This document shows, one piece after another, positions 37,172-41,507 of a stretch of DNA of 64,000 nucleotides (its first letter is position 1; each line of letters starts with the position of its first letter). A program made the translations under genes and the position numbers. The DNA lies in the NCBI GenBank assembly GCA_963716365.1, contig OY970307.1:1551253-1615252 (forward strand), in the 5' to 3' direction. The notes beneath the pieces are model-generated. The model was not told the origin of the DNA and searched no databases. It worked only from the letters and a program-made list of their open reading frames with translations. The stretch is from Candidatus Dormiibacterota bacterium. Lineage in GTDB: Bacteria; Chloroflexota; Dormibacteria; Aeolococcales; Aeolococcaceae.

Positions 37172-37603
37172 GTGTGGGCCGGCGTGGCCGACTACGCCGA
37201 CACGCTTCCATGGAACCTCGACGATCCGGACGTTGCCGCACTCGAAGCCTGCCGGCGCATGCAAACGTCAAGCGAGTCCGTGGCCGTCCACTGCCACGTG
37301 TTCACGCCGGAATCGCTCCGTGATCCGTTCGACAAGCTCGCGCGTCTCGATCTCGTCGACTTCGAGGTGGCGTCAGTCGTTCCGAACGAAGTCGGTTCGC
37401 TCGAGTTCATCGTCGGGCTCCGCCTCGTGGATCCATCAACCGGTCGCGAGAAGATGCGGGCCACGCAACTGCAATCAGTGGCGCAGGTCAGTCATCAACC
37501 GCCGCCAGAGCGTGCCGGGGTGCAACTCACCGGTATGGTCGTGAGTCCGCGGGAGACGGTTGGTCCGGAACGAAGGACGTCGCGCCCGGCTAGCCCGCTG
37601 TGA
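37172..37603 (+). CDS. hypothetical protein; in the same frame as the HAD gene, separated from it by a single TGA
   Basis: GTG start. No recognisable domain. Its reading frame is continuous with the HAD gene apart from the stop at 37115-37117. Confidence 0.3.
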   Translation: MWAGVADYADTLPWNLDDPDVAALEACRRMQTSSESVAVHCHVFTPESLRDPFDKLARLDLVDFEVASVVPNEVGSLEFIVGLRLVDPSTGREKMRATQLQSVAQVSHQPPPERAGVQLTGMVVSPRETVGPERRTSRPASPL

Positions 37604-38882
37604 CGTGGAACAAAAGCGTCTCGTTGCCACCGACGAGCCACAAGCCGGGTGACCCCTGTGCGAGCAGGAACGGGGAGGATCCCTCGGTCCCGGGGATCGG
37701 CAGCCGCGAGGACGACGCCATGCCCGTGCTCGGGTTCAGCGCGGTCAGGTACGAAAGCGGTTGCGGCGTGCCGGGGCCAAGTCCGGGGTAGAACTCCCAG
37801 ATCAATCCCGACTCGAAGGCGATCGCGGTAGGGCTTCCTCCTCCTGACAGCGTGCTCATGTGGCCGTCAGCGAGGTCGACGCGCACCGGCGCGTCGCCGG
37901 TCGCATCGAAAACGTAGACGGCACTGCCGGCGCAGGCAACCATCGGAGACCACTCGCCCGGAAGCGTTGCGATGGTTCTCGCCGGTCCGCCACCAAGACT
38001 CACCGAATAGACGTTGATGCTCGGAGCCCCTGCCTCGTTCAGTTCGCTGACTCCCAGATACATCACGCCTCCACAGATGGCAAGAGCACTCTGCGCTGAC
38101 ACCGACGGACCCTGAAGCACCCCGGGTACTGTGGTGACGAGCGAGGACCGTCCTGCACTCAAAAGGTAGATGCCGGTCGGTCCGTTGGCAGTTTCGGACG
38201 ACATGGCGAGCGCTCCGCTTCCATCGGCGACCACCGCGGTGGGGCCGGAGACGGGATACACATGTGCCAGCCTGCCCGTGGTCGCATTGAACTGCATGAC
38301 CGTGTTCTCTTCGGGCAACACCTTCGATCCATCGCCGAAGCTGTTCGCCACCCAGACATAGTCACCGGCTGCAGAAACCGCTACAGGATCACCACCGACC
38401 ACCCAGGCAGCGGTTTGCCGCCCTGACGACGCGTCGATACGCAAGAGAGTGCCCGGTTGCCCGTATGTCGGACTGATGGTTGCGACCCAAACGGTGCTCG
38501 GAGTCACGAACATCGCATTGGCTTGGCGAGATCCCAGGCTCACCTGTTGAGCGATGCGCATCGGAATAGCCGGTCCCAACGGCACACTCGGTGACGGCGT
38601 CGTGGGCCTGGCGGTGGTCGTCGCTGTCGGAATCGGCGCTGGAGTGTGATGTGCCGGCGAAGGCGTCACTGGTGAATGACGCGTCAGCGCAATGACGAGC
38701 GTGACAACGAGCGCGGCAGCAACACCGGCGCACAGGATTTCGAATGCAAGTCCTGAGCGGCGGTGCACCACGAAGTCATGGCGCGACACGAACTGCTCAA
38801 CTCGGGCAAGTGCAATCTCGTCTGTCTGCGACAGTGGGCGGGAGCCGAGAGTCTCGCTGATCACGTCGACGTCATGGTTCAT
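37590..38882 (-). CDS. anti-sigma factor: cytoplasmic N-terminal domain, one TM, and an extracytoplasmic beta-propeller-like (YVTN/PQQ-like repeat) sensor domain
   Basis: It overlaps the upstream ECF sigma gene by 11 nt. The N-terminal roughly 50 aa are anti-sigma-like, followed by TM GVAAALVVTLVIAL, a Pro/Thr linker, and repetitive V..G..P..V..S....A.V blades. Confidence 0.6.
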   Translation of the reverse strand: MNHDVDVISETLGSRPLSQTDEIALARVEQFVSRHDFVVHRRSGLAFEILCAGVAAALVVTLVIALTRHSPVTPSPAHHTPAPIPTATTTARPTTPSPSVPLGPAIPMRIAQQVSLGSRQANAMFVTPSTVWVATISPTYGQPGTLLRIDASSGRQTAAWVVGGDPVAVSAAGDYVWVANSFGDGSKVLPEENTVMQFNATTGRLAHVYPVSGPTAVVADGSGALAMSSETANGPTGIYLLSAGRSSLVTTVPGVLQGPSVSAQSALAICGGVMYLGVSELNEAGAPSINVYSVSLGGGPARTIATLPGEWSPMVACAGSAVYVFDATGDAPVRVDLADGHMSTLSGGGSPTAIAFESGLIWEFYPGLGPGTPQPLSYLTALNPSTGMASSSRLPIPGTEGSSPFLLAQGSPGLWLVGGNETLLFHVTAG

Positions 38883-39603: not shown

Positions 39604-40143
39604 ATGACGACCGGTAGCGGCACTGGTCCGATCGGGCTGTCTGCTGCTGACCTCGATGACGTCTACAGGACCGAGATCCGCCGGCTCATCGGGCTCGGAA
39701 CAGTCCTCATGGGCAGCCGCTCCGCGGGGGAGGATCTTGCCCACGATGCCTTCCTGCTGGTGTTGCGCCGCGCTCAGCGCGACCCCGGCTACCTCCGATC
39801 GCCGGCATGGCCGTTGTTGCGAACCATGCTCGTCCGACTCTCGGTGCAGCGCCGCCGCTCGATCGCGCGAGAGGGCCGGCGCCTTGCTCGGTTCTGGGAG
39901 CCTGCGGTCACCGAATTCTGGGACCCCGACGCCGATCTCATCGACTGGCAGGCCACCCTCCGTACGCTCCCGCCACGGATGCGAGCGTGTGCGGTGCTCT
40001 TCTACGGAGAGGACCTGAGCGTCGCGGACGTTGCGCGCGAGCTCGGCTGCTCGCCGCGGACCGTCGAGCATCAACTGCATCGCGCGCGCCAGAAACTCGC
40101 CGCCACGCTCGGGATCAGCCGGAATGAGGAAGCGGGGCAATGA
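39604..40143 (+). CDS. ECF (sigma-70 family, group 4) RNA polymerase sigma factor
   Basis: Region 2 (EDLAHDAFLLVLRR) and region 4 (LPPRMRACAVLFYGEDLSVADVARELGCSPRTVEHQLHRARQKL). Its stop overlaps the next gene start (ATGA). Confidence 0.8.
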   Translation: MTTGSGTGPIGLSAADLDDVYRTEIRRLIGLGTVLMGSRSAGEDLAHDAFLLVLRRAQRDPGYLRSPAWPLLRTMLVRLSVQRRRSIAREGRRLARFWEPAVTEFWDPDADLIDWQATLRTLPPRMRACAVLFYGEDLSVADVARELGCSPRTVEHQLHRARQKLAATLGISRNEEAGQ

Positions 40144-41507
40144 ACACAACCGACAACTTCGACGCGTATGCCCGATCGATGACTCACAGGCTGCTGAAAG
40201 CCGCCGAGTCCGATCCAGCGAAGTCGCTGGACGAGCGCTCCACCACCGTCCCACGAACTGTGGCGATGCTCGTCGCGACTCTCGTGCTGGTCGCCGGGCT
40301 GATTCTCGTCGGAACCTCGGTGCTCCATATCCAGTGGTCGCATGGCCCCGTGAAGGTCGCGACGCCGCCTCCGGTGATCACCCAGGCTCCGACGGCTACC
40401 CCGACCACGACACCCTCTCCAACAGCCGCGCCGACGAGTGTCATCGCCAACGTCCACATGATCACCGCGACGGTTGGATGGGCGCAACGACAGTCCGACG
40501 GAGCGGTCCTCCATACGACGCACGGCGTGATGACGTGGTCCGTCGCGACGCCGCGCATCGGCAGTCAGGACATCATCGCCGTCGCATTTATCGATGCGGA
40601 GACCGCCCGCGCTCTCACCGCGGTTATCCCGCCGGATGGTGAATCTGCGTCGGCGGTGATTCGGTCCTGGGCCACCAACGACGGCGGTGCGACCTGGATC
40701 GACGAAGGAGGTTTCTCCGGCACCGCGCTGCAATACGAACCCGATGGAACGCTCGACTTCGTCGATCCGGACCACGGTTGGTACTCGGTGACGGGGCTCG
40801 CTGCTGCGGGCTCGTCAGCGATCTACGTCTACCGAACCGTGGACGGGGGCCGCCATTGGTCCGAAGTCGACACCACGAGCATCGTTCCCGGTCCCGGAGT
40901 CAACGCGCTCCCGTCGGGCTGTGACAAGAACCCTGTCTCGTTCATCAACACGGTCACCGGCTGGGATACAGGGGAGTGCGCCGGCGGGTCGGCCTTCCTG
41001 TATGTCACACATGACGGCGGCACGGTCTGGCGCGCTCAGTCCTTGGGAAACACGCGATCGGACGGCGGAAACGCAATACAGCCGCCGCAGTTCGTCAGCG
41101 GGAGTGTCGGGTTCATGGTCGAGTCCGTTTACCAGCAGGCTGGTGTTCGGACAACGGTGGACGTCACCACCAACGACGGCGCGACCTGGACTCCCAGGAC
41201 GGCCCCAGGTCTCTACGCGGATGCGTCCGATTTCATCAACGCAGCGGACGGATGGCTGCTCATGAGCGACCCGGAGAGTGCAACCGTGACTGAGAGCCTG
41301 TTGGTGACCAGCAACGCCGGGCGAACATGGGCGCGCGTCCCGACGACCGCGAATCTGGCCGGCCTCAGCATCGAGTTCGTGACAACAAAAATCGGCTGGG
41401 CCTACACAACAATTCCAGAGGGATCGGGAGCGACACAGGGATTGCTGCAGACAACCGACGGCGGGCAGAGCTGGACCGCTGTCACGGCCACGATCGCGGG
41501 GGCGTGA
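40140..41507 (+). CDS. anti-sigma factor with one TM and an extracytoplasmic BNR/Ycf48-like (SxDxGxTW repeat) beta-propeller domain
   Basis: TM MLVATLVLVAGLILVGTSVL, a Pro/Thr linker, then repeats TNDGGATW, TVDGGRHWS, THDGGTVW, TNDGATWT, SNAGRTWA, TTDGGQSWT. Confidence 0.65.
   Translation: MNTTDNFDAYARSMTHRLLKAAESDPAKSLDERSTTVPRTVAMLVATLVLVAGLILVGTSVLHIQWSHGPVKVATPPPVITQAPTATPTTTPSPTAAPTSVIANVHMITATVGWAQRQSDGAVLHTTHGVMTWSVATPRIGSQDIIAVAFIDAETARALTAVIPPDGESASAVIRSWATNDGGATWIDEGGFSGTALQYEPDGTLDFVDPDHGWYSVTGLAAAGSSAIYVYRTVDGGRHWSEVDTTSIVPGPGVNALPSGCDKNPVSFINTVTGWDTGECAGGSAFLYVTHDGGTVWRAQSLGNTRSDGGNAIQPPQFVSGSVGFMVESVYQQAGVRTTVDVTTNDGATWTPRTAPGLYADASDFINAADGWLLMSDPESATVTESLLVTSNAGRTWARVPTTANLAGLSIEFVTTKIGWAYTTIPEGSGATQGLLQTTDGGQSWTAVTATIAGA

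Follow-up and report, generated by a model that had tools for sequence, protein, structure and literature searches.

The 64-kb stretch of DNA analysed here (the window; contig OY970307.1) derives from a genome of Candidatus Dormibacterota (AD3), an uncultured soil phylum, as judged from the homologues of the window proteins. It contains two divergent gene pairs, each consisting of a gene for an extracytoplasmic function (ECF) sigma factor followed by a gene for a single-pass membrane protein with a β-propeller, and these pairs are considered here as candidate sigma/anti-sigma modules. Four open reading frames (ORFs) in two divergent pairs had been described in an earlier reading of the letters alone (the sequence-only reading), and all four were confirmed in the ORF list. 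Pair 1, on the minus strand, comprises sigma-1 (38872..39420, 182 aa) and AS1 (37590..38882, 430 aa), the putative single-pass anti-sigma factor of sigma-1; pair 2, on the plus strand, comprises sigma-2 (39562..40143, 193 aa) and AS2 (40140..41507, 455 aa), the putative single-pass anti-sigma factor of sigma-2. The start codons of the divergent sigma genes are 141 bp apart. As the sequence-only reading had also noted, both pairs are translationally coupled: sigma-1 overlaps AS1 by 11 nt (the sigma-1 stop codon, read as TCA on the plus strand, lies at 38872–38874 and the AS1 ATG at 38882), and sigma-2 overlaps AS2 by 4 nt, with a common ATGA at 40140–40143. No further sigma gene was found within the 64-kb window, and an Rfam scan detected no RNA element in the sigma region.

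Sigma-1 and sigma-2 are both bona fide two-domain ECF sigma factors, as had been proposed. Assignment to the ECF (group IV) sigma-70 factors was based on the presence of only the domains known as sigma-2 and sigma-4, a length of about 160–200 aa and recognition by the ECF superfamily model; here and below, sequence models were searched in Pfam and NCBIfam at E ≤ 1, and profiles were searched against PDB chains at E ≤ 10. The Pfam model Sigma70_r4_2 was matched by sigma-1 (E = 7.5e-15) and sigma-2 (E = 4.4e-15), and the ECF superfamily model TIGR02937 gave 55.8 and 46.5 bits, respectively, both of which pass the cut-off of 42.9. In addition, sigma-1 matched Sigma70_r2 (24.2, cut-off 24) and sigma-2 matched Sigma70_ECF (26.3, cut-off 21.1). 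The top NCBIfam model for both proteins was TIGR02983 (SigE family), with 61.9 bits for sigma-1 and 74.2 bits for sigma-2; membership of this actinobacterial family (the clade of ECF39/38/51/222) was rejected, as the scores lie far under the cut-off of 141.55. The nearest solved relative of sigma-2 was SigE of M. tuberculosis (E = 1e-9), and those of sigma-1 were SigW and RpoE (E ~1e-3).

The ATG of sigma-1 at 39420 was kept across its orthologues, which begin MA(T/M)D. For sigma-2, the ORF at 39604..40143 given by the sequence-only reading is present, but translation more probably starts at 39562, giving 193 rather than 179 aa, because this ATG was kept in all eight orthologous loci and because the homologues of sigma-2 (>200) are mostly 191–194 aa in length. 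The alternative ATG at 39604 is preceded by a Shine–Dalgarno sequence, GGGAGG, that was conserved in close relatives only, and it may yet be the start that is used. The database gene calls for several of these sigmas begin at other codons.

The two partner proteins share a layout. In AS1, a cytoplasmic segment (residues 1–44; 38751–38882, minus strand) is followed by a transmembrane (TM) helix (residues 45–67; 38682–38750), a Pro/Thr linker (residues 68–105) and a seven-bladed YncE-like β-propeller (residues 106–430; 37593–38567). In AS2, the corresponding parts are a cytoplasmic helix segment (residues 1–38; 40140–40253, plus strand), a TM helix (residues 39–62; 40254–40325), a Pro/Thr linker (residues 63–100) and a seven-bladed BNR/Asp-box propeller (residues 101–455; 40440–41504). 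AlphaFold2 models built from family alignments had a mean predicted local distance difference test (pLDDT) score of 80 for AS1 and 78 for AS2, with values of about 90 for the propellers. Two cytoplasmic helices (residues 7–14 and 19–33) were predicted within the 44 aa of AS1 and a single one (residues 4–23) within the 38 aa of AS2, at pLDDT 50–72; the TM helices and propellers had the boundaries given above, the AS2 linker was Pro/Thr-rich and the AS1 linker was both Pro/Thr-rich and disordered. The propellers would be extracytoplasmic (N-in/C-out), a topology supported by homologues in which a lipoprotein signal peptide replaces the N-terminal segment.

The models thus bear out the proposal of a distinct propeller in each pair, one YncE-like and the other BNR/Ycf48-like. 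The description of the AS1 propeller as ‘YVTN/PQQ-like’ holds at the level of fold, but not at that of sequence: AS1 had zero matches in Pfam, and its likeness to the YncE/YVTN type is one of fold only. The six repeats reported for AS2 were all found (residues 179, 233, 290, 343, 390 and 438), but in the Asp-box-like variant form T-x-D-G-G-x-x-W rather than as SxDxGxTW, and one additional degenerate repeat lies near residue 125. In Pfam, AS2 matched BNR_2 (31.6, cut-off 31.4), BNR (28.2, cut-off 27) and Sortilin-Vps10; PSII_BNR scored 24.2, under its cut-off of 27. Foldseek searches with the AS2 model returned Ycf48 as the best match, together with GH74 domains and the Vps10 domain of sortilin. 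The AS2 propeller is therefore of the BNR/Asp-box (Ycf48-like) type. Only the fold is shared with these proteins: Ycf48/HCF136 and Escherichia coli YncE have 12–17 % sequence identity to the proteins studied here and are soluble or lipid-anchored proteins without a link to a sigma factor, whereas AS1 and AS2 are sigma-coupled membrane proteins. Function is not transferable from Ycf48/HCF136 or YncE to the proteins studied here.

AS1 and AS2 are best read as putative anti-sigma factors, on the grounds of synteny, of the exceptions that lack a sigma and of the modularity of an N-terminal motif. The genomic context regarded as typical of an anti-sigma gene, namely the +1 position, translational overlap with the sigma gene and conserved synteny, was found for both. 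Orthologues of AS2 were collected from eight GTDB genome loci (L006–L013) in a search with an alignment of 16 close orthologues, and in seven of the eight the gene was directly preceded by an orthologue of sigma-2 (50–87 % identity). An orthologue of AS1 was directly preceded by one of sigma-1 in 15 fetched loci (L001, L004, L005, L014–L017, L019–L023 and L027–L029), a count that includes L004 and L005, near-identical contigs carrying the same protein. Forms without a sigma differ at the N-terminus. The sigma-less form of the AS2 propeller, in L010, is a lipoprotein without the AS2 cytoplasmic segment; those of AS1 (L024–L026) are short signal-anchor proteins without the AS1 cytoplasmic segment; the AS1 homologue in L018 is truncated at its N-terminus, so that the cytoplasmic segment is gone; and the homologues P0084 and P0137 begin with a lipobox-type sequence and are not directly preceded by a sigma gene. 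The AS1/AS2 segment was missing from all sigma-less copies examined, the sample of about 14 pairs being too small for covariation statistics.

An alternative is that the genes at +1 encode envelope proteins co-transcribed with the sigmas, such as binding proteins, assembly factors or enzymes, which are targets of the sigmas and not their regulators, the sigmas being controlled in some other way. That the same propellers also occur without a sigma, as free lipoproteins or with a signal anchor, suits this explanation, as do the nearest folds, since the assembly factor Ycf48, GH74 and YncE include no signalling protein. It is opposed by the absence of the AS1/AS2 segment from every sigma-less copy examined, and a mere target would need neither a conserved cytoplasmic helix nor strict translational coupling to the sigma at each locus.

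Further evidence on this point came from sigma-2-like paralogues (43–55 % identity) in L001, L037, L038 and L039, all of which are followed by an overlapping +1 gene. A motif at the N-terminus, FDxxARxLTxxLxxxAE, was common to the +1 partners of such paralogues (L001, L037, L038, L039 and P0271); it reads FDAYARSMTHRLLKAAE in AS2 and FDAKARSLTKRL, FDDKAQRLTHEL, FDERARRLTQSL and FDDRARTLTQSL in paralogue partners. The ectodomains of the +1 partners that bear this motif are unrelated among themselves, and the BNR propeller for its part is joined with no fewer than three sigma/N-terminus types and also exists in a free form. Because the motif recurs across unrelated ectodomains, the N-terminal helix tracks the sigma and not the sensor; a helix that follows the sigma, combined with interchangeable sensors, shows the behaviour expected of a sigma-binding module. 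That the motif follows sigma type despite unrelated ectodomains also counts against the propeller proteins being simple sigma targets. The residues of AS2 that are invariant, R12, T15, L18 and E23, have the spacing i, i+3, i+6, i+11 within the predicted helix 4–23, and from this spacing alone would be placed on one face of the helix.

The ectodomains of the partners in L038 (3573–4658) and L039 (3537–4742) consist of about six to eight Cys-containing repeats of the form ‘SCP..LCVAVD..G.V.TSTNP.GG..AW’. Scanning gave no Pfam match for the L038 partner and none is on record for that of L039; the repeats represent an undescribed domain, which is possibly a further propeller.

A conserved promoter-like motif was identified upstream of each sigma gene, in surroundings that were otherwise unconserved. 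The sigma-1 motif (39429..39460, minus strand), derived from an alignment of 11 upstream regions, consists of CGTTACCTTT (39451–39460), a 14-nt spacer and GGTCTTAC (39429–39436), and ends 8 nt upstream of the ATG at 39420. The sigma-2 motif (39523..39555, plus strand), derived from an alignment of eight upstream regions, consists of TAGGGGG (39523–39529), a 17-nt spacer and CGTATGTAG (39547–39555), and ends 6 nt upstream of the ATG at 39562. The two motifs differ from each other. The pattern GTTACC-N15-20-GGTC occurred once per locus in 13 loci, upstream of the sigma-1 orthologue only, and once in the window; each of eight loci had a single TAGGGG-N15-20-CGTAT, invariably in front of sigma-2, and the window likewise had one, against 0.01 expected. 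Spacing between the core −35 and core −10 elements is 17 nt for sigma-2 and 18 nt for sigma-1 (GTTACC-N18-GTC), and no sigma-70 consensus promoter was found in the intergenic region. The motifs fit ECF-type auto-promoters because of their CGTA and GTC −10 elements, their core spacing and this lack of a sigma-70 consensus. The −10-like elements end 6–8 nt before the conserved starts of sigma-1 (39420), sigma-2 (39562) and the paralogues in L038 and L039, and so short a distance suggests leaderless or near-leaderless mRNAs.

Several observations weigh against an anti-sigma role or against a separate promoter for each sigma. The homologue P0067, a BNR protein without a sigma, has a long cytoplasmic N-terminus, although this is Arg-rich and unrelated to those of AS1 and AS2; the association of a missing sigma with a missing cytoplasmic segment is therefore not a strict one. 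The cytoplasmic segments, of 44 and 38 aa, are far below the size of a class I anti-sigma domain. The N-terminal segments were conserved no more than the linkers, and a region-wise comparison of conservation (cytoplasmic, TM, linker and propeller) did not discriminate between regions. Sigma-2-like paralogues carry a nearly identical promoter motif; since they share the motif type, the motif is a property of the clade, and there could be cross-recognition, or one common sigma, rather than each paralogue, could read the promoters of all. The sequence-only reading had itself named a failure of the N-termini to match anti-sigma hidden Markov models (HMMs) as grounds for giving up the identification, and literally this was observed: none of the anti-sigma models in Pfam and NCBIfam matched AS1 or AS2, and the AS1 and AS2 N-terminal profiles found no anti-sigma chain among all PDB chains. 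A search of 1.84 billion representative proteins with the AS2 N-terminal profile returned only seven matches, the query being too short for sensitivity.

The lack of an HMM match is nevertheless a weak criterion, because most putative +1 anti-sigmas, whose cytoplasmic regions are group-specific, are without a match to any of the Pfam anti-sigma domains (PMC7826278, section 14). Partners with one TM helix occur in 82 ECF groups, and a protein with one TM helix in the +1 position, with a group-specific cytoplasmic region and no Pfam match, is the commonest form of putative ECF anti-sigma (PMC7826278, section 14). The missing homology to anti-sigma domains and the very short cytoplasmic segments would suit envelope proteins that are mere sigma targets equally well; taken with the evidence above, we regard that explanation as unlikely, though still to be reckoned with.

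Class I anti-sigma domains (ASDI; RseA, RsiW, RslA, ChrR and RskA) have four helices and an average size of 101 ± 33 aa (PMC7406223). AS1 and AS2 cannot be of this class, having only 44 and 38 cytoplasmic residues, and the two helices and one helix predicted for them, together with the absence of HMM matches, led to the same rejection. They resemble more closely CnrY, the class II partner of CnrH in Cupriavidus metallidurans, and RsbN, the class III partner of sigma-BldN, in which short segments of two or three helices, as opposed to the four of class I, bind the sigma. AS1, with two predicted helices in 44 aa, is like these proteins, whereas AS2 has essentially one helix; no sequence similarity of AS1 or AS2 to CnrY or RsbN was detectable in the PDB profile searches, and CnrY lacks a large propeller ectodomain such as AS1 and AS2 bear. 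Assignment to class II, class III or a new class would need the structure of a complex. It is possible, if doubtful, that FDxxARxLTxxLxxxAE represents a fourth structural class of ECF anti-sigma, that is, an undescribed minimal sigma-binding module made of a single amphipathic helix of about 20–25 aa ahead of the TM helix, unrelated in sequence to the class I–III domains and combined with interchangeable ectodomains (BNR propellers, Cys-rich ‘TSTNPxGGxxAW’ repeats and unknown folds) in a large sensor repertoire of Dormibacterota.

Coupling between helix and sigma type leaves the sign of regulation unspecified, and the +1 protein might instead be a positive or dual regulator that tethers or activates its sigma, in the manner of the N-terminal fragment of FecR, which acts as a pro-sigma factor. 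No similarity to FecR was found in Pfam or NCBIfam, however, and the two-helix CnrY wraps around both domains of its sigma and thereby inhibits it (PMC7406223, section 10), so that small size is compatible with inhibition. Positive regulation is accordingly rated as quite improbable, and the anti-sigma reading is retained below.

The sequence-only reading took the two pairs to be a back-to-back duplication. The comparisons do not bear this out: sigma-1 and sigma-2 share 38 % identity over 92 residues, in region 4 only; AS1 and AS2 showed no similarity in a full-length comparison; their N-terminal profiles, with an hhalign probability of 6 %, are not homologous; and the promoter motifs differ. 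A two-input envelope sensor, formed by functionally paired modules and tied to the glycosylation locus next door, would accord with the divergent arrangement across 141 bp, with the position of pair 2 beside the mannosylation locus, which the window has in common with the closest relative, and with the divergent second sigma pairs found upstream of sigma-2 in L009 and L013 as well. The sigmas are only distantly related, though, and their partners unrelated, and the history of the locus also speaks against a unit.

The closest relative is represented by L002, L003 and L006 (L002 and L006 are one contig, and the genome of L003 is nearly identical). It has 91 % DNA identity to window positions 39520–51507, is collinear with the window from 27824 onward and has the order haloacid dehalogenase (HAD) gene, sigma-2, AS2 and mannosylation locus. 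Window positions 37128–39519 (2.4 kb), which hold sigma-1/AS1 and a methyltransferase remnant, correspond to about 150 bp in L002 (9230–9380), so the closest genome lacks the pair-1 block here; in other genomes the block is located elsewhere. Orthologues of sigma-1/AS1 occur without sigma-2/AS2: in L004 and L005 they adjoin a HAD gene, and in L001 they belong to a cluster made up of four sigma/partner pairs. The remnant, an ORF of 143 aa (37172..37603, plus strand) at the left border of the block that overlaps the 3′ end of AS1, is the C-terminal part of a S-adenosylmethionine-dependent methyltransferase-like protein whose methyltransferase domain is missing; it aligned with residues 191–320 of a 345-aa protein (L010, 5083–6120) with 52 % identity (E = 8e-40). 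This truncation points to a rearrangement. Smaller indels were seen nearby: window positions 35600–36340 are absent from L002, and the window lacks L002 6725–7465, which holds a DUF1801 gene.

In L009 and L013, the divergent position upstream of sigma-2 is occupied by a different sigma/BNR pair, the sigma being of another type with 35 % identity to sigma-1, and the divergent site seems to be a place where sigma modules accumulate rather than a fixed two-component design. The cluster in L001, from another Dormibacterota genome, contains within positions 1–12000 four ECF sigma genes, each with an overlapping or abutting membrane-protein gene, and also a BNR propeller gene, which indicates a large paralogous expansion of sigma/partner modules.

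Only the window and the closest lineage have the mannosylation locus (41519–52472, minus strand) next to AS2; no mannosylation genes lie beside AS2 in L007–L013. The locus encodes a bifunctional nucleoside triphosphate-transferase/phosphomannomutase (41519–44032), a GT4 glycosyltransferase (44091–45392), an amidohydrolase (45635–46465), a weakly PIG-V-like protein (46462–47571), a GT2 glycosyltransferase (47568–48323), an unknown protein of 739 aa (48310–50529) and a PMT-family protein O-mannosyltransferase (50526–52472), all on the minus strand. The sequence-only reading had proposed a search for ECF-type promoters upstream of each pair and of the glycosyltransferase genes; candidates for the former were found, as described above, but neither the sigma-1 nor the sigma-2 motif lies before a glycosyltransferase gene, strict matches being restricted to the two auto-promoters. 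Matches with one mismatch were intragenic and at chance level (two observed, about 2.8 expected). Control of the mannosylation genes by the two sigmas was rejected on these results, and the proposed link of the pairs to the glycosylation locus has been dropped. A paired sensor serving this locus is, all told, very improbable indeed. The Pro/Thr-rich linkers of AS1 and AS2 (e.g. ATPPPVITQAPTATPTTTPSPTAAPTS) resemble what we take to be typical O-mannosylation substrates in Actinobacteria.

Other features of the window include a gene for a Kelch-type β-propeller (30994–32283, plus strand) downstream of TetR, NAD-dependent epimerase-family and polyketide-cyclase-like genes (28255–30867), an arrangement (28255–32283) that is collinear with the closest relative; fusions of Kelch and BNR propellers occur elsewhere among the AS2 homologues (P0083, P0087 and P0088). 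The HAD-hydrolase ORF (36095–37117, plus strand) was called with 340 aa, its homology to orthologues of 248 aa begins at residue 92, and its true start is probably near 36368. A tRNA-Gly(CCC) gene at 13023–13094 (minus strand) was the sole Rfam/ARAGORN match in the window.

The explanation we favour, and consider probable, is that the locus holds two independent modules of an ECF sigma and a membrane-anchored anti-sigma factor that came to lie head to head by chance, each working by sequestration, an external cue, release and autoregulation. In each module the sigma and its +1 gene would be co-translated, and the cytoplasmic helices, within a segment of 38–44 aa, would retain the cognate sigma at the membrane, as a short anti-sigma of a class-II-like kind might do. 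Release of the sigma, probably via regulated proteolysis, would then be triggered when the propeller meets a ligand or an envelope cue, possibly a glycan in the case of the BNR propeller. Free sigma-1 would transcribe from its own lineage-specific promoter (CGTTACCTT, about 14 nt, GGGTCTTA) and free sigma-2 from its own (TAGGGGG-N17-CGTAT); with these promoters only 6–8 nt before the start codon, each sigma would positively regulate its own expression from a leaderless or near-leaderless mRNA, and a regulon would be expressed besides.

Modules of this kind agree in most respects with the generic ECF/single-pass anti-sigma modules of the ECF classification 2.0 (Casas-Pastor et al., 2021; PMC7826278), with which they share a two-domain ECF sigma, a +1 partner with one TM helix, a cytoplasmic region without a Pfam anti-sigma match and a conserved motif upstream of the sigma gene that is consistent with autoregulation. 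They differ in that the best proxy for an ECF group assignment, TIGR02983, scored only 62 and 74 bits against 141.55. The literature searched contained nothing relevant on anti-sigma factors combined with β-propeller, BNR or WD40 domains, nor on Dormibacterota combined with ECF or sigma factors, and the partner families described here were likewise absent from it. A resemblance was also noted to the SigI/RsgI systems of Clostridium thermocellum (PMC10328401, PMC6582324, PMC4711584), where each genome has many paralogous sigma/single-pass pairs, the N-terminal part that binds the sigma is conserved and the extracellular sensors joined to it are interchangeable, and polysaccharides are sensed; the BNR/GH74-like fold of AS2 is likewise carbohydrate-related. 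The sigmas described here are nevertheless of ECF type and not sigma-I, no anti-sigma family in Pfam or NCBIfam was matched, and no carbohydrate-binding module was identified in AS1 or AS2. Membership of SigI/RsgI was rejected on the first two counts, and the resemblance is one of modular logic only.

The general concept is unchanged by these modules, since uncharacterized, group-specific anti-sigma regions are the rule for ECF pairs, and only some aspects are mildly unusual: the modular repertoire of propellers, the minimal FDxxARxLT helix and the apparently leaderless auto-promoters, seen here in an uncultured phylum. The promoter motifs and short helices are compact parts which could serve as orthogonal sigma/anti-sigma/promoter sets in synthetic biology, and the motifs could help to define regulons in metagenome-assembled genomes. 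If the explanation is true, it would offer a first look at envelope signalling in Dormibacterota, with an expanded set of ECF sigma/single-pass pairs, swappable propeller sensors and a promoter motif of its own for each sigma lineage.

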